Shown here: piece by piece, positions 1-4,252 of the stretch | How the letters are laid out: every line of letters starts with the position of its first letter | Position numbering within the stretch: position 1 is the stretch's first letter | Origin: a virus | Lineage: Duplodnaviria > Heunggongvirae > Uroviricota > Caudoviricetes | Virus record (IMG/VR): IMGVR_UViG_2671180430_000008 | Reading direction: 5' to 3' (one strand) | Length of the DNA: 4,252 bases | Notes under the pieces: generated by a model | What the model saw: the letters and a program-made list of their open reading frames with translations, nothing else | The model's database searches: none | Told to the model about the DNA's origin: nothing | Made by a program: the position numbers and the translations under genes

Positions 1-2
1 AT

Positions 3-50
3 ATTGAAGAAGCATGGGCTGAGCGGCAGTTAAAAAAGGTAACTAGGTAA
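3..50 (+). CDS. 3' end of an upstream CDS running off the left edge; by position possibly the C-terminus of a Q-like late antiterminator
   Basis: Open frame from the window edge (...IEEAWAERQLKKVTR*) stopping at 48-50, just upstream of a pR'-like promoter. Frame is ambiguous: another frame stops at 31-33. Too short to identify. Confidence 0.25.
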   Translation: MEEAWAERQLKKVTR

Positions 51-55
51 CAAGG

Positions 56-83
56 TTGATTTTTCCGGAATCTGTGGTAAATT
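56..83 (+). promoter_or_regulatory. pR'-like late promoter (-35 TTGATT 56-61, 16-nt spacer, extended -10 TGgTAAATT 75-83)
   Basis: Good sigma70 match. The segment 76-98 (ggtaaattcgtcataacgatggg) closely resembles the lambda pR'/qut region as I recall it (GGTAAATTTGACTCAACGATGGG). A terminator follows about 50 nt downstream, as with lambda 6S RNA. Confidence 0.55.
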
Positions 84-130
84 CGTCATAACGATGGGCG
101 TTTTATGCCTGACGTTAGAAGAGTTTCTAC

Positions 131-154
131 AACCCGCCGCCGAGCGGGTTTTTT
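131..154 (+). terminator. tR'-like rho-independent terminator
   Basis: Stem aacccgc (131-137) / gcgggtt (144-150), 6-nt loop, T-run 149-154. Lies downstream of the pR'-like promoter. Confidence 0.7.
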
Positions 155-274
155 ATGACTGAAATCGCGTCAGTACAGTAAACGCGCTGGTGGCGGTGAA
201 TACCTGTCTTTCAGCTTGCTGGCTTTTTCGACAAGAGTTATTGGTGTGTCACGTTAACCGGAAAAGGAAAAGAC

Positions 275-472
275 ATGCTAAAACAGCAGGATATGACAGA
301 AACCGCCAGAGTGGTGTTTAATGAATTAAGCGTTACCGAACCGGCGACAGTCGGGGAGATAGCGCAGAATACTTACCTTTCACGCGAACGCTGCCAGTTA
401 ATACTGACCCAGCTGGTTATGGCGGGTCTGGCAGACTATCAGTTCGGTTGTTACAGACGCCTTCCGCAGTGA
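275..472 (+). CDS. Small (65 aa) winged-helix/HTH-like DNA-binding protein, function unknown (PapI/FaeA-like pattern is a guess)
   Basis: Shine-Dalgarno AAGGA at 264-268, 6 nt before ATG 275. Segment TVGEIAQNTYLSRERCQLILTQLVMAGL looks like a helix-turn-helix. Uses rare AGA and ATA codons matching the downstream tRNAs. Stop codon lies inside the terminator hairpin. Confidence 0.55.
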   Translation: MLKQQDMTETARVVFNELSVTEPATVGEIAQNTYLSRERCQLILTQLVMAGLADYQFGCYRRLPQ

Positions 473-482
473 AGGCTTTTTT
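459..482 (+). terminator. Rho-independent terminator overlapping the stop of the 65-aa ORF
   Basis: Stem gccttc (459-464) / gaaggc (471-476), loop cgcagt, T-run 477-482. Confidence 0.6.
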
Positions 483-500
483 ATTTGTGGTAAATGGGCG

Positions 501-529
501 GCTGGTGGGTGTTAGGGGCACCCACCAGC
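501..529 (+). promoter_or_regulatory. Perfect 11-bp inverted repeat (stem-loop or operator-like site) in the leader of the methyltransferase gene
   Basis: gctggtgggtg (501-511) and cacccaccagc (519-529) are exact reverse complements, 7-nt spacer, no T-run after. Further hairpins at 572-590 and 595-613 precede ATG 623. Confidence 0.4.
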
Positions 530-622
530 CATCTGCTCATGCGTTGGGTTCACAAGCAAACCTCAGGCCCACTGCTTTGCGCAAAAGCAGAATGAGCCTA
601 TCAGAGACAGGCTTAATGATCC

Positions 623-1681
623 ATGCTTAATACTGTAAAAATATCCAGTTGTGAGTTAATCAACGCCGACTGCCTGGAATTTATCCGGTCGTTACCCGAA
701 AATTCTGTTGACCTGATAGTCACGGACCCGCCGTACTTTAAAGTGAAGCCTGAGGGCTGGGATAACCAGTGGAAGGGCGACGATGATTACCTGAAGTGGC
801 TGGACCAGTGTCTGGCGCAGTTCTGGCGGGTGCTGAAACCTGCCGGAAGTCTTTACCTGTTCTGTGGTCATCGCCTGGCATCTGATATCGAAATCATGAT
901 GCGTGAACGCTTCAGTGTGCTGAACCATATTATCTGGGCGAAGCCGTCCGGACGCTGGAACGGATGCAACAAGGAAAGCCTGCGGGCGTATTTCCCCGCC
1001 ACAGAGCGCATTCTGTTCGCGGAACATTATCAGGGGCCGTATCGTCCGAAAGATGCCGGGTATGCGGCGAAGGGCAGTGCACTGAAACAGCATGTGATGG
1101 CCCCGCTGATTTCTTACTTTCGTGATGCGCGAGCTGCCCTGGGGATAACGGCAAAACAGATTGCAGATGCCACAGGAAAGAAAAACATGGTGTCGCACTG
1201 GTTCAGTGCCGGTCAGTGGCAGTTGCCGAATGAAAGCGATTATCTGAAATTACAGGCGCTGTTTGCCCGGGTGGCAGAAGAGAAGCATCGGCGTGGTGAA
1301 CTGGAAAAGCTCCACCACCAGCTGGTGGATACGTATACCTCACTGAACCGGCAGTATGCGGAGCTGCTGAGTGAATATAAACATCTGCGGCGGTATTTTG
1401 GCGTGACGGTGCAGGTGCCGTATACCGATGTGTGGACGCATAAACCGGTGCAGTTCTATCCCGGGAAACATCCGTGCGAAAAACCGGCAGAAATGCTGCA
1501 GCAGATAATCAGCGCTAGCAGTCGTCCGGGTGACCTGATTGCAGATTTTTTCATGGGGTTGGGTTCGACAGTGAAAGCGGCACTGGCGCTCGGGCGTCGT
1601 GCAATTGGCGTTGAGCTGGAGACTGAACGTTTTGAGCAGACGGTTCGGGAAGTACAGGATTTAGTCAGCCAGAACGGATGA
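623..1681 (+). CDS. Beta-class DNA methyltransferase (N6-adenine type by DPPY motif; N4/N6 MTase family), apparently orphan
   Basis: 352-aa ORF. Catalytic motif IV DPPY at aa 35-38 (nt 725-736) after LPENSVDLIVT; AdoMet motif I DFFMGLGST at aa 308-316 (nt 1544-1570). Order IV...TRD...I is the beta-class arrangement, unlike Dam. No endonuclease gene nearby. Weak SD. Confidence 0.88.
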   Translation: MLNTVKISSCELINADCLEFIRSLPENSVDLIVTDPPYFKVKPEGWDNQWKGDDDYLKWLDQCLAQFWRVLKPAGSLYLFCGHRLASDIEIMMRERFSVLNHIIWAKPSGRWNGCNKESLRAYFPATERILFAEHYQGPYRPKDAGYAAKGSALKQHVMAPLISYFRDARAALGITAKQIADATGKKNMVSHWFSAGQWQLPNESDYLKLQALFARVAEEKHRRGELEKLHHQLVDTYTSLNRQYAELLSEYKHLRRYFGVTVQVPYTDVWTHKPVQFYPGKHPCEKPAEMLQQIISASSRPGDLIADFFMGLGSTVKAALALGRRAIGVELETERFEQTVREVQDLVSQNG

Positions 1682-1721
1682 TATTGAAGAATTAATTACG
1701 CGTCGTTATTATGCGGCTCCC

Positions 1722-1797
1722 GGCCCTTTAGCTCAGTGGTGAGAGCGAGCGACTCATAATCGCCAGGTCGCTGGTTCAAATCCAGCAAGGGCCACCA
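1722..1797 (+). tRNA. ileZ: tRNA-Ile2 (anticodon CAU, read as lysidine-CAU decoding AUA); formally could be elongator tRNA-Met
   Basis: Manual cloverleaf: acceptor ggccctt/aagggcc, D-arm gctc...gagc, anticodon loop ctCATaa, T-arm gctgg-ttcaaat-ccagc, discriminator A, encoded CCA. G1-C72 so not initiator. Near-identical in outline to E. coli ileX as recalled. ileZ symbol by analogy to Stx phages. Confidence 0.85.
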
Positions 1798-1804
1798 TCA
1801 CATA

Positions 1805-1881
1805 CCGCCATTAGCTCATCAGGAAAGAGCGCCAGCCTTCGAAGCTGGCTGCGCGGGGTTCAAGTCCCCGATGGCGGTCCA
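1805..1881 (+). tRNA. tRNA-Arg (anticodon UCG)
   Basis: Manual cloverleaf: acceptor ccgccat/atggcgg, D-arm gctc...gagc with A20, anticodon stem ccagc/gctgg, loop ctTCGaa (C35 present), T-arm cgggg-ttcaagt-ccccg, discriminator U, encoded CCA. This Arg isoacceptor is not in the E. coli K-12 chromosomal set as far as I recall. Confidence 0.75.
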
Positions 1882-1894
1882 TTATCTGCATCAT

Positions 1895-1971
1895 GCGTTG
1901 TTAGCTCAGCCGGACAGAGCAATTGCCTTCTAAGCAATCGGTCACTGGTTCGAATCCAGTACAACGCGCCA
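1895..1971 (+). tRNA. tRNA-Arg (anticodon UCU, decodes AGA)
   Basis: Manual cloverleaf: acceptor gcgttgt/acaacgc, D-arm gctc...gagc with A20, anticodon stem attgc/gcaat, loop ctTCTaa, T-arm actgg-ttcgaat-ccagt, discriminator G, encoded CCA. Confidence 0.88.
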
Positions 1972-1985
1972 CACTTATTTTCCCT

Positions 1986-2011
1986 GGCTCGCTTTTGCGG
2001 GCCTTTTTTTT
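1986..2011 (+). terminator. Rho-independent terminator after the tRNA cluster
   Basis: Stem ggctcgc (1986-1992) / gcgggcc (1997-2003) with one G-U pair, loop tttt, then 8 T (2004-2011). Confidence 0.75.
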
Positions 2012-2458
2012 AAATGTCTCACAATTCAGACGGTTGACAGTTGTCTGTTTTGCGGGGAGTTTGTTAAAAGAAACTGGCATGGTGAATCCCCCTGTGCGGA
2101 GGGGCAATCAGCGAGTAGGTATATGGGATAATCGCGGATTCAGGTGCTGGTACTGAATTCACCGGGAGGCACCCGGCATCATGCAATGGCACATAGCGCC
2201 ACTCTCCAGCCCTCTCCGGAGGGGCTTTTCTGTGCCGGATACATCACAGTTTCTGGAACCTTAGGTACTACAGTATCAGTCAGGGTGCTATATTTTCAGA
2301 TGTGATGAAAGCCTGTCAGCAGGCAGGGCGTATCGGAAATGACCCAGTAGAGAAAACGTTGACTCAGATACCGGTGCTGAGTTACCGGGAAACCGGCATC
2401 ACATGACCGCTATCCTGAGGTGTACTGGCAATAGCGGACACTACCATTTGTTCTTTTT

Positions 2459-3277
2459 TTAAGCAGCCATCTGATGATATTTTTCCCTGAAGGCTGCCGG
2501 GGAGATATTCCCCAGACGAGAGTGACGACGCTGACGATTGTAGAAAATCTCAATGTATTCCCGTATTACTGAGATGGCTTCATCCCGGTTATTAAAACGA
2601 TAGTGGCTCAGGCTCTCATTTTTCAGCGTTCCCCAGAAGCTTTCCATCGGAGCGTTGTCGTAACAGTTACCTTTACGCGACATTGATGTTTTCAGACCAG
2701 ACTGCTCCTGTATGACCCGGTAATCGTATGCGCAGTACTGTGAACCTCGATCAGAGTGGTGGATTAGCCCGGCAGGTGGGCGCTGGCTCCTGAGCGCCAT
2801 AAACAGGGCTTTACCTGTCAGCTCTTTTGTCATGCGCTCTCCCATGGCGTAGCCGACAATTTCGCACGTATAAACATCTTTGATGCCAGCGAGGTACAAC
2901 CATCCCTCCTGTGTGGCAACATACGTCAGGTCCGCCACCCAGACCTGATTTGGTGCTGTAGGAGCGAACGTCTGGTTCAGCAGATTTGGCGCAACTGGCA
3001 GATTGTGGTTCGAGTTCGTAGTCGCTCTGAACTTGCGTTTCTGCTTACAGCGTAGCCTTAGCTCCTTACGAAGACGTGCCAGTCGGTCACGACCAACGAT
3101 GATGCCATTCTCTGCCAGCTCCGTCTGGAGCCGCCGGGTTCCATATGTTTCGCGAGTGCGGATATGTGCCACCTTAATCTCCAGTTTTAGCCGCTCATCA
3201 CTTTGTTTTCTGTCTGAGGGTTCATGCTGTACCCAGTTGTAATAACCGCTCCTGGATACACCAAATACCTGACACAT
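2459..3277 (-). CDS. IS3-family transposase OrfB (DDE integrase/catalytic core)
   Basis: 272 aa from first Met. DDE-type segments WVADLTYV, HHSDRGSQY, CYDNAPMESF. N-terminal region EAMCQVFGVSRSGYYNW matches the IS3-family OrfB pattern. Normally expressed as an OrfAB fusion by -1 frameshift. Confidence 0.9.
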   Translation of the reverse strand: MCQVFGVSRSGYYNWVQHEPSDRKQSDERLKLEIKVAHIRTRETYGTRRLQTELAENGIIVGRDRLARLRKELRLRCKQKRKFRATTNSNHNLPVAPNLLNQTFAPTAPNQVWVADLTYVATQEGWLYLAGIKDVYTCEIVGYAMGERMTKELTGKALFMALRSQRPPAGLIHHSDRGSQYCAYDYRVIQEQSGLKTSMSRKGNCYDNAPMESFWGTLKNESLSHYRFNNRDEAISVIREYIEIFYNRQRRHSRLGNISPAAFREKYHQMAA

Positions 3278-3312
3278 CGCTTCAATGGGAAATTGTTGTC
3301 GCCATTGTTCGA

Positions 3313-3438
3313 TTAACGCGTATTTTTCAGCGACTCCTGTGCAAAATACGCTGTTGCTTTTTTTAATATATCTCGCTCAAGGCGAGCTTCATTTAACGCC
3401 TTACGAAAACTCCGGAGGGGCTGTTTATATTGATTTTG
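3313..3438 (-). pseudogene. Remnant of IS3-family orfA (C-terminal ~41 codons only)
   Basis: Minus-strand frame reads QNQYKQPLRSFRKALNEARLERDILKKATAYFAQESLKNTR*, stop at 3313-3315. An in-frame TGA lies at 3439-3441; no HTH-encoding N-terminal part follows. Confidence 0.6.
3358..3366 (-). other. Programmed -1 frameshift slippery site (A-run followed by G) at the orfA/orfB overlap of the IS
   Basis: Minus strand reads TTA AAA AAA GCA in the orfA frame (T7 at 3358-3364 on plus). OrfB lies in the -1 frame relative to orfA. Confidence 0.55.
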
Positions 3439-3454
3439 TCAGATGTGAGTAAAC

Positions 3455-3488
3455 TCCTTATGGACTTTGTTGTTTTAGTCCATAAGGA
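3455..3488. repeat. Perfect 11-bp inverted repeat with 12-nt spacer
   Basis: tccttatggac (3455-3465) and gtccataagga (3478-3488) are exact reverse complements. Overlaps the stop codon of the 111-aa ORF and lies about 15-50 bp from the IS truncation point. Confidence 0.45.
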
Positions 3489-3793
3489 CATATTTGCAGA
3501 GTGCAACGGTTATTAAAGCATTCATTCAATACGTTATCTGTATTTGTAGGGCATTCCTGGCTATTTTTGATTGAATTCCAGAATGTTTTATTGAATGGTA
3601 CTACGTTGTAAATGGTTACAGGTAGCACTTTGTTATTGAGCATGATGCCTGTGTGAGTCAGTGTAAATATACTTTCAGGAGGTAAGAAAGCATCCGATTG
3701 ATACCAGATTATTAATTTTATTTTACTCCATATGACTGAAAAAGATATTCCGCATGATGGCTGGATAACTGTATCAATCACAATCCACTTCAT
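3458..3793 (-). CDS. Hypothetical protein, 111 aa, in the AT-rich island; unknown function, possibly the N-terminal fragment of a larger gene cut by the IS-associated deletion
   Basis: ATG at 3793 with Shine-Dalgarno AGGAAA (plus 3798-3803) and a sigma70-like promoter upstream. Trp-rich N-terminal half; four Cys at C89/C100/C105/C110. Its 3' end abuts the IS deletion junction. No family recognised. Confidence 0.45.
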
Positions 3794-3833
3794 TTAGTTT
3801 CCTTGTTTATGCCTTGCTGGTGATGTTCTGAAA

Positions 3834-3860
3834 AGTATAAATGATATTTTTGAATGTAAA
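3834..3860 (-). promoter_or_regulatory. Candidate sigma70 promoter for the 111-aa ORF (-35 TTTACA, -10 TATACT on minus strand)
   Basis: Minus strand -35 is plus 3855-3860 (tgtaaa), -10 is plus 3834-3839 (agtata). Spacer is 15 nt (short). The -10 lies about 40 nt upstream of the ATG. Confidence 0.3.
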
Positions 3861-4053
3861 CCATAGAGCAGAATTATTTTTCTGATGTTGTTTATTGTTT
3901 ATTTAAATGCAGGGTGGTTTATATCTCGTCTTGTAGTTTATCCATGCATATCTGCTTGATAATCAGGTTTTTATTTAAGGTATGGTTTTGTGTTTTTTCT
4001 GTATTACATGTCAGGTATTTTAAAGAATTATTTTTCAGATGGTGGAAAGAACC

Positions 4054-4180
4054 ATGGCATTTAAACACTATGATGTTGTCAGGGCGGCGCCGCCGTCAGA
4101 TCTTGCGGAAAAGCTGACACATAAACTGAAAGAGGGCTGGCAGCCGTTTGGTAGTCCGGTGGCCATAACCCCTTATACCC
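4054..4180 (+). pseudogene. 5' portion of a small phage gene (DUF1737-like, recalled from memory) interrupted by IS insertion
   Basis: Start ATG 4054 with GGAAAG-type SD (alternative ATG 4039 has none). Encodes MAFKHYDVVRAAPPSDLAEKLTHKLKEGWQPFGSPVAITPYT, then the frame runs directly into the IS terminus at 4181. Confidence 0.55.
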
Positions 4181-4252
4181 TGAGGTGTACTGGCAATAGC
4201 GGACACTACCATTTGTTCTTTTTTTAAGCAGCCATCTGATGATATTTTTCCC
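4181..4252 (-). mobile_element. Right end of a second IS3-family (IS600-like) copy, same orientation as the first, continuing past the window
   Basis: 4181-4252 is 72/72 identical to 2416-2487. Flanking 3 bp are ccc here and tcc at copy 1, so these are independent insertions. Confidence 0.85.

Follow-up and report, generated by a model that had tools for sequence, protein, structure and literature searches.

Shigella genomes routinely show IS600 insertions, truncated remnants of IS elements and rearrangements driven by them; this is ordinary IS biology. IS600 reportedly brackets the stx locus of Shigella dysenteriae 1, in work attributed to McDonough & Butterton in 1999. In strain Sd1617 an IS600 with a truncated orfA lies upstream of stx, in a source that also treats the types of Stx prophage (PMC7819885), and high IS-driven structural variation is documented for S. 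sonnei (PMC12795559). The window analyzed here, a stretch of 4,252 nucleotides of viral DNA, is like the S. dysenteriae 1 stx locus in being the late region of a defective lambdoid prophage whose cargo follows the phage tRNAs and has IS600 next to it, and in carrying direct IS repeats through which homologous recombination could amplify or delete sequence. It differs in that its cargo is iraM, not stxAB, and in that no amplification or deletion variant was observed. An earlier sequence-only reading of this DNA had drawn the parallel with IS600 systems, and it is apt, as the element is IS600.

Compared with IS600 in S. sonnei prophage remnants, the window is alike in its 99.8–100% identity, in the orfA/orfB layout, in the A7G site and in the TCC duplication of the full allele, and both of its insertion sites occur in many sequenced genomes; its first copy differs in having lost the left 274 bp and in being joined to the DNA of another prophage. 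As lambdoid cargo, iraM is placed as it is in E. coli (1446 genomes), between the phage tRNA/A segment and nanS-p, with the same 3' flank and divergent intergenic region, while the window differs by having IS600 sequence on both sides. The join also bears comparison with homology-facilitated illegitimate recombination or a template-switch patch, since ~1 kb of IS600 homology could serve as the anchor of one end and the other end is non-homologous and lies by a hairpin; the AAAA filler in the window is not typical of homology-facilitated illegitimate recombination, and the side of the homologous crossover lies beyond the window. This type of recombination is best documented in naturally transformable bacteria, not in Shigella. 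The reading that we favor, with a probability of roughly 55%, is that the window represents the late region of an S. sonnei lambdoid prophage that received two independent IS600 transpositions, followed by a join between two prophages, made without transposase, inside orfA of the first copy.

Features of the window and sequences used in the comparison (prophage X, ompW side; prophage Y, yecE side; both of S. sonnei)
Feature	Position	Strand	Remark
Phage tRNA trio Met/Ile-CAT, Arg-TCG, Arg-TCT	1722..1971	+	ARAGORN
Non-coding 'A' segment of prophage X	2007..2415	+	ends in TCC triplet 2413-2415, the copy 1 target
IS600 copy 1, truncated	2416..3405	-	IS600 identity stops at 3405
orfB of copy 1	2459..3277	-	DDE transposase part, 272 aa from first ATG; ORF list
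orfA remnant	3313..3405	-	RKALNEARLERDILKKATAYFAQESLKNTR, then stop; translation against the 100-aa OrfA of L014
AAAA filler, non-homologous junction	3406..3409	.	matches neither IS600 (continues CAGTTGC) nor prophage Y (CCCT upstream)
Prophage Y fragment	3410..4180	+	loop and right arm of a terminator-like hairpin (3410-3424), iraM, divergent intergenic region, esterase 5' end
iraM, anti-adapter stabilizing RpoS	3458..3793	-	111 aa, full length; low-GC cargo segment, 31-37% GC
NanS-p-like SASA carbohydrate esterase, 5' end	4054..4180	+	42 codons, DUF1737 domain; cut by copy 2; target triplet CCC 4178-4180
IS600 copy 2, right terminal 72 bp	4181..4252	-	identical to 2416-2487; window ends there
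Junction k-mer			CCTTACGAAAACTCCGGAGG
Prophage X right flank of IS600			TCCTTCCAGGCC; also given as TCCTTCCAGG
Prophage Y right flank of copy 2			CTAATCAGCTTAGCC; also given as CTAATCAGC

The two IS600 copies and their insertion sites

The first copy is IS600 (IS3 family, IS3 group): across 997 nt it is 99.8% identical to a full, annotated element in the locus L002, which carries the RefSeq annotation 'IS3-like element IS600 family transposase', and it is 100% identical to several S. sonnei IS600 copies. Comparison with annotated IS600 also fixed the truncation point at 3405; the extent of 2416-3438 first given for this copy is too long, as IS600 identity is followed by four adenines and, from 3410, by phage DNA. 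Of the 1264 bp of a full element, copy 1 retains 990: its right terminal inverted repeat is in place at 2416, along with orfB, the frameshift site and the 30 codons at the end of orfA. Absent are 274 bp on the left, which would hold the other inverted repeat and orfA codons 1-70. Translation against the full 100-aa OrfA of L014 puts the loss at 70 of 100 codons, in agreement with the earlier view that the copy had kept its right terminus and OrfB and had lost its left terminus and most of orfA. The orfB frame is intact and matches the NF033516 IS3-family transposase profile at 334 bits (cutoff 160), and an A7G programmed -1 frameshift motif can be read within the orfA remnant at 3357-3364. Only the right member of the pair of terminal inverted repeats (TGAGG...; ...CCTCA) is present, and with the left terminus and 274 bp gone copy 1 is an IS600 remnant and no functional member of its group. 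An orfA of 30 codons out of 100 would yield neither OrfA nor OrfAB, and copy 1, with no left end and without orfA codons 1-70, is by this evidence dead.

Together the copies form a direct repeat of 77 nt (2411-2487 and 4176-4252) with one mismatch, of which 72 nt, from 2416 and 4181, are IS. Both copies are IS600 and face the same way, and the identical 72-bp terminus that had been read for copy 2 from 4181 is confirmed. So is the view that they inserted separately: judged by their different flanks, TCC and CCC, and by the IS-free alleles of copy 1 (L017, L021, L022) and of copy 2 (L001), the two are separate insertions of one IS type. A target preference behind the similar 5-nt flanks, TA(T/C)CC, was considered and rejected, the motif being absent at the other IS600 flanks in the loci. 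The remaining ~990 bp of direct homology could in principle let RecA recombination delete the interval.

The phage tRNAs that precede copy 1 are part of the prophage late region, downstream of Q and of a DNA methylase gene (623-1681), and the same tRNA cluster is present in Stx-type phages and E. coli prophages. Positions 1-3405 of the window match prophage X, with one base differing from L014, L015, L016, L019 and L020, and positions 1-2416 are 100% identical to L017 and L022, where the copy 1 site is empty. This site holds a full IS600 in seven S. sonnei loci (L013-L016, L018-L020) and is empty in three (L017, L021, L022), where it reads GCTATCCTTCCAGG. The full-length allele at the site measures 1264 bp and has TCC on either side, a 3-bp target site duplication, which is invisible in the window because the left end of copy 1 is deleted.

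Copy 2 in prophage Y also measures 1264 bp, and has CCC as its left and CTA as its right flank; with no target duplication there, this copy is itself a recombinant. All 843 bp of positions 3410-4252 agree 100% with L003-L012 and L023-L031, and the DUF1737/IS600 junction created by copy 2 is present in 30 loci. The gene interrupted at this point, earlier called a small phage gene, is a DUF1737-SASA esterase gene of 617/618 aa. Of the complete frame (~617 aa, with DUF1737, SASA and DUF6645), 42 native codons are left before copy 2; the IS-free allele (L001, 5924-7780) shares this N-terminus and codes for 618 aa, and complete 617/618-aa esterase genes are found in both L001 and prophage X. Pfam DUF1737 is recorded for the truncated esterase product. 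When the DUF1737 products left by the truncation (62 and 57 aa), iraM and the methylase were looked up by exact match, canonical X or Y architectures were all that came back.

iraM and its flanks

IraM (PRK09919, with a PmrD-like fold) protects RpoS from RssB. The product encoded in the window matches the NCBIfam profile NF007393 for IraM at 162 bits (cutoff 121), its residues 1-110 covering profile positions 1-113 of 114; the identical protein has a Pfam PF11183 record and the RefSeq annotation IraM. The sequence-only reading had supposed that the 3' part of this gene was lost in a deletion and that an IS-free allele would restore the missing sequence. The gene is complete, and the IS-free E. 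coli allele likewise encodes 111 aa, with one substitution, so nothing has been lost from it; the sequence on the left of the scar comes from a different prophage. Downstream of the iraM stop codon 48 bp are intact up to the junction, and the 260 bp between the iraM start codon and the divergent esterase gene, which presumably contain the iraM promoter, are unchanged.

The low-GC segment had also been taken for an island defined by its flanking IS copies, a view that does not hold, since 1446 of 5426 complete E. coli genomes carry iraM with no IS beside it. Judged by this distribution and by its sequence, iraM is a standard and common cargo gene of lambdoid prophages, whose coding sequence is unaltered by the IS600 on either side. 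The lesson is that a truncated IS beside a low-GC gene needs to be checked against IS-free alleles before it is taken as the mark of an IS-mediated deletion or of an island delimited by IS copies.

The junction at 3405/3410

By alignment of its two sides, the junction joins different S. sonnei prophages, X and Y, and not the remaining parts of a single prophage with an internal loss of DNA, as had been proposed. In three complete genomes the two prophages share their relative orientation and are separated by 662,556, 667,959 and 780,922 bp. IS600 is broken 274 bp in from its left end, and the junction has four filler bases but neither microhomology nor an IS terminus. An adjacent deletion made by transposase begins exactly at the IS end and leaves the IS whole. 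The position of the break inside the element, the AAAA filler and the lack of microhomology therefore indicate that the truncation is not an IS-mediated deletion, contrary to the first interpretation.

No nearby template of 10 nt or more was found for the AAAA. A template in a variant allele upstream of iraM was rejected, as among the matches listed (1446 E. coli genomes with a match) the alignments of the iraM locus all begin at 3410, where phage DNA starts; homologous recombination between IS600 copies or between A and A' segments was also rejected, the breakpoints falling outside the shared sequence. On the Y side the break falls inside a hairpin that, intact in prophage Y, folds at -13.1 kcal/mol (z -3.65), a fold that is lost in the window. 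The order and orientation from the A segment to IS600 are identical in both parents, and the join gives the near-syntenic order methylase, tRNAs, A segment, iraM, nanS, as in E. coli L001.

The junction k-mers were absent from all 42 loci compared, including ~30 complete S. sonnei chromosomes. A junction-spanning megablast against 5426 complete E. coli genomes and phage records gave no place covering at least 80% of the query, the exact 41-mer and 20-mer junction patterns were not found in GTDB representative genomes, JGI metagenomes or IMG/VR, and exact-protein look-ups of the two ORFs that span the junction returned no record. The junction is either a strain-specific secondary rearrangement or a chimeric sequence.

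Routes to the observed arrangement

In the history that we favor, copy 2 would be the older insertion, common to every S. sonnei prophage Y locus seen and disrupting the nanS-p-like esterase gene, and copy 1 the younger, placed in the non-coding segment of prophage X downstream of the phage tRNAs. A later break inside orfA of copy 1 would then have been joined to Y DNA without homology or transposase and with the AAAA filler, the Y-side end lying 48 bp beyond the iraM stop, where a GC-rich hairpin of 9 bp has its base. A simple X-Y deletion is an unlikely source, because the collinear prophages are ~0.67 Mb apart across the terminus region and the loss should be lethal. The most economical real route would be a non-reciprocal patch that copied the Y segment (iraM, the nanS 5' end and IS600) into X, with one crossover by IS600 homology and, at the other end, an illegitimate join at a hairpin-induced stall or break; such a patch would resemble homology-facilitated illegitimate recombination or template switching. 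We infer both the presence of the junction in a living strain and the patch mechanism. The restored near-syntenic order, which a random chimera would rarely produce, speaks for a real join. The more specific proposal, that a hairpin-induced break or stall by iraM together with IS600 homology copied iraM from the yecE-site prophage into the ompW-site prophage, so that the junction is real and the transfer non-reciprocal, is a tentative one that we would not expect to be correct in all its parts. If it is, IS copies would act as portable homology that shuffles cargo genes between co-resident prophages without transposition. The window ends 72 bp into copy 2, and the right flank that would reveal the type of event lies beyond it.

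A non-biological origin of the junction, by misassembly, a chimeric long read or template switching during library preparation that joined two genuine S. sonnei loci, is possible, though we hold it to be rather unlikely. In that case IS600 would be full length in prophage X of the actual genome, and prophage Y would be ordinary, which accords with the uniqueness of the junction among everything searched and with the intact parental arrangements in every complete S. sonnei genome inspected. The expected inviability of a simple X-to-Y join, a deletion of ~0.67 Mb across the terminus region (judged partly from the E. coli map), points the same way, as do the AAAA filler without microhomology and the fact that polymerase template switching in vitro also favors hairpins. 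Untemplated filler without microhomology is unusual for end joining in E. coli and Shigella, which counts against a real junction. However, a De Bruijn-graph misjoin needs a shared k-mer at the join and there is none here, and random joining of two collinear homologous late regions would not be expected to preserve syntenic order and orientation. Moreover, there is no adapter or low-quality sequence at the join, and each side carries 0-1 mismatch.

A corrected form of the earlier idea, a local deletion beside IS600 within one prophage, we consider improbable. The first step would be an IS600 insertion in prophage Y with Q on one side and DUF3927 on the other, the arrangement found in strain CP046286.1; the element would then have lost its left 274 bp along with ~550 bp of adjacent phage sequence, made up of DUF3927 and the greater part of the A' segment; and IS600-to-IS600 recombination would have exchanged the left flank for that of prophage X. 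Such a starting element does exist: in L032, ~550 bp left of the Y breakpoint, there is a correctly oriented full IS600 that is flanked by a GAG duplication and is 100% identical to window 2416-3405. Exchange of X and Y flanks via IS600 also occurs (L020), and a loss of ~825 bp is mechanistically easy. Against this, three steps are needed, one of them a rare insertion seen in 1 of ~30 Y loci, and the direct orientation of X and Y means that flank exchange removes 0.67 Mb, so that a prior inversion is needed as well; iraM is untouched, and the deletion would still not be transposase-mediated, given the break inside the IS. Less probable still is movement of a composite transposon (IS600 remnant, iraM, 5' nanS, IS600) as a unit to the TCC site of prophage X, with copy 1 supplying its right terminus and copy 2 its left terminus as the outer ends. 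The window does contain two direct copies and the outer right terminus of copy 1, and the left flank is the exact TCC site where other strains have a simple IS600; copy 2's outer left terminus is present in the Y relatives and, like the right flank and any duplication around the unit, lies beyond the window. Yet the unit was not found elsewhere in the loci or in scans of the collections, and two independent insertions at one TCC site are improbable, modification in place of a resident IS600 being simpler.

Since the window joins prophages that are 0.66-0.78 Mb apart in three genomes, it should be flagged before downstream use as a possible chimera or strain-specific rearrangement, and it has little importance beyond such bookkeeping. 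Should the junction be real, as in the history that we favor, it would be a small example of resident prophages exchanging a cargo gene through IS homology. Besides the IS600-to-IS600 exchange between X and Y in L020, further damaged IS600 copies are present in L021 and L026.

Origin of the window in two Shigella sonnei prophages

The window occupies the cargo site in the late region of a lambdoid, Stx-phage-like prophage, and its positions 1-2105 are matched by Stx2 phages that carry stxAB at the corresponding cargo position. In most strains the S. sonnei prophage beside ompW (prophage X) matches positions 1-3405 with 0-1 mismatch, and positions 3410-4252 (843 bp) are 100% identical to the prophage beside yecE/cmoA (prophage Y), whose gene order is Q, DUF3927, iraM, 5' DUF1737 and IS600. 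iraM was absent from every prophage X locus seen, and the 5' end of the X esterase gene is only 92% identical to that of the window. Where both loci were placed, in three complete genomes, X and Y have the relative orientation of the window, with their breakpoints 662,556 bp (CBDDMI010000001.1), 667,959 bp (CP104423.1) and 780,922 bp (HE616528.1, strain 53G) apart. A plain deletion between these breakpoints should not be viable, since the interval from ompW to yecE covers the terminus and carries essential genes on the E. coli map.

Features of the window and of one comparison locus
Feature	Position	Remarks
Antiterminator Q gene, 3' end	left end of window	
65-aa ORF	between Q and methyltransferase gene	
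DNA methyltransferase gene	623-1681	352 aa
Phage tRNAs	1722-1971	n = 3
Non-coding segment (A segment)	2007-2415	
IS-related sequence (IS600 copy 1)	2416-3405	
111-aa ORF (iraM)	3458-3793	minus strand; inside low-GC stretch
Gene start (esterase)	4054 onward	plus strand
Second IS terminus (IS600 copy 2)	4181-4252	
Extra IS600 of prophage Y in L032 (CP046286.1)	4940-6200 (locus coordinates); 2138-3401 (reverse-complement coordinates)	

The 111-aa ORF, in a stretch of 31-37% GC in the GC profile, is the anti-adapter IraM, with an end-to-end alignment to NCBIfam NF007393 at 162 bits (cutoff 121) and the same name in RefSeq. It had been proposed that a deletion scar removed the 3' part of this island gene. 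IraM has 111 aa in the window and in the IS-free allele alike, with one substitution, and the 48 bp from its stop codon to the junction do not differ from IS-free alleles. Because the gene is full length and its segment is common without an adjacent IS600 (1446 of 5426 complete E. coli genomes), the 'island' is an ordinary prophage cargo gene, untouched by the scar.

The tRNA at 1722-1797 is called tRNA-Met (CAT) by ARAGORN, whereas the homologous gene is a tRNA-Ile in RefSeq; it is probably a lysidine-modified, ileZ-type tRNA of Stx-like phages. The 65-aa ORF and methylase module of X are missing from Y (window 157-1681 versus position 8218 of the Y locus L003), with X/Y homology of 94% and 88% identity on either side; this difference is a clean module swap.

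Two independent IS600 insertions

A direct repeat of 77 nt with one mismatch (2411-2487 and 4176-4252) includes 72 nt of IS sequence. Positions 2409-3405 align at 99.8% identity with a locus that RefSeq labels 'IS3-like element IS600 family transposase', and orfB of copy 1 hits an IS3 transposase model in a profile search; the repeated element is identified by alignment as IS600. Copy 1 is truncated, as had been read from the sequence, but its end, formerly placed at 3438, was set 33 bp too far: identity to IS600 ends at 3405, beyond which the complete element goes on with CAGTTGCAG, so that 990 of 1264 bp remain. These include the A7G frameshift motif (3357-3364) and the last 30 codons of orfA; codons 1-70 and the left inverted repeat are gone. 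Bases 3406-3409 (AAAA) have no match, and phage DNA begins at 3410.

The copy 1 site is empty (GCTATCC-TTCCAGG) in three genomes, one of them S. sonnei 53G (L017, L021 and L022), and a full 1264-bp IS600 occupies exactly this site in seven other S. sonnei loci, with the TCC duplication on both sides. At the copy 2 site, the IS-free E. coli allele L001 encodes an uninterrupted 618-aa DUF1737-SASA (NanS-p-like) esterase, which copy 2 enters after codon 42; the gene that it cuts is therefore large, not the small phage gene first supposed. All 30 retrieved S. sonnei prophage-Y loci, 53G among them, have the resulting DUF1737/IS600 junction, and copy 2 is the older insertion. Each site thus has its own IS-free allele, which bears out the view that the copies were inserted separately, and the flanking triplets do differ (TCC at copy 1, CCC at copy 2). 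The 5 nt preceding the two termini are near-identical (TATCC, 2411-2415; TACCC, 4176-4180), and both are native target sequence in IS-free alleles; since no such motif was found at other IS600 flanks in the retrieved loci, the likeness is probably due to chance.

The join between the prophages

An adjacent deletion made by transposase begins at an IS terminus and leaves the IS whole. Here the break lies inside IS600 (CCTTACG/CAGTTG; on the prophage Y side, CAGCCCCT/CTCCGG), with no IS terminus at the junction, no microhomology and four untemplated A's between the two sides. Of the sequence-only reading there remain the separate IS600 insertions, one of them truncated; the IS-mediated deletion falls, together with the truncated island gene and the small cut gene. 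In prophage Y a 9-bp GC hairpin precedes a T-rich tail, and the break on this side falls at the hairpin base; when intact, the hairpin has a predicted folding energy of -13.1 kcal/mol (z -3.65), and its remnant in the window consists of the loop and right arm only. The hairpin core CTCCGGAGGGGC occurs three times in the window (2090-2105, 2210-2225 and 3410-3425; repeat families D8 and D9) as part of repeated, terminator-like 'A' modules 3' of phage tRNAs, two of which stand in tandem in L001 (4604-5019 and 5118-5296).

The junction k-mer was not found in the 42 retrieved loci, among which are about 30 complete S. sonnei chromosomes, or in IMG/VR, GTDB representatives or JGI metagenomes; the junction was likewise not found in complete E. 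coli genomes or phage records, and protein look-ups of ORFs across it returned no match on record. The IS600 biology of the window is already known; its sole unusual element is this unique junction between two prophages, which may be an artefact. That the window is a chimeric sequence is a possibility of some weight, though the lesser one: the A segment and IS600 share their order and orientation in both parents, and the join re-creates the gene order of L001, a collinearity that points to a homology-guided process and not to a random chimera.

We favor, with a probability of roughly 0.55, a secondary rearrangement specific to one strain, in its simplest viable form a non-reciprocal patch. In this model, iraM, 5' nanS and IS600 (the Y segment) would have been copied into the resident IS600 of prophage X, with a crossover within IS600 homology at one end and an illegitimate join, at a stall or break induced by the hairpin, at the other. 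Such a patch would place TCC and then prophage-X DNA to the right of copy 2, and RecA recombination between copies 1 and 2 would restore the canonical X allele. A route of several steps, through an IS600 5' of iraM, a local 825-bp deletion and an exchange of IS600 flanks, is unlikely, even though L032 does carry an IS600 upstream of iraM with a GAG duplication. That the structure, with copy 1 truncated, moved as a composite transposon is highly improbable.

IS600 in other Shigella loci

IS600-to-IS600 exchange between X and Y is visible in S. sonnei loci. The IS600 cutting the Y esterase gene (10143-11406 in L003 and L006) lacks a target duplication, with CCC on its left and CTA on its right, and its right flank CTAATCAGC is found in L020 beside a different IS600 (4165-5428), to the left of prophage X; for these reasons the L020 arrangement, as judged from the flanks, indicates an inversion between the IS600 copies of X and Y. 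The stx locus of S. dysenteriae 1 is reportedly flanked by IS600; a 1999 paper deals with amplification and deletion. In one S. dysenteriae 1 strain, an IS600 with truncated orfA lies 5' of stx (PMC7819885), and S. sonnei has very high IS-linked structural variation (PMC12795559).

In prophage Y of one S. sonnei strain (L032), the extra IS600 is a full element located between Q and DUF3927; as it has the direction of the copy that cuts the esterase gene, DUF3927, iraM and 5' nanS are naturally flanked by two complete direct copies. L021 (CP029794.1) has a 449-bp IS600 (4730-5178) with both termini and an internal deletion, which may be genuine or a collapse in assembly, as this genome is only 4.54 Mb. 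In the 53G-type loci L026, L030 and L036, an IS1 is nested within the Y IS600, about 153 bp in.
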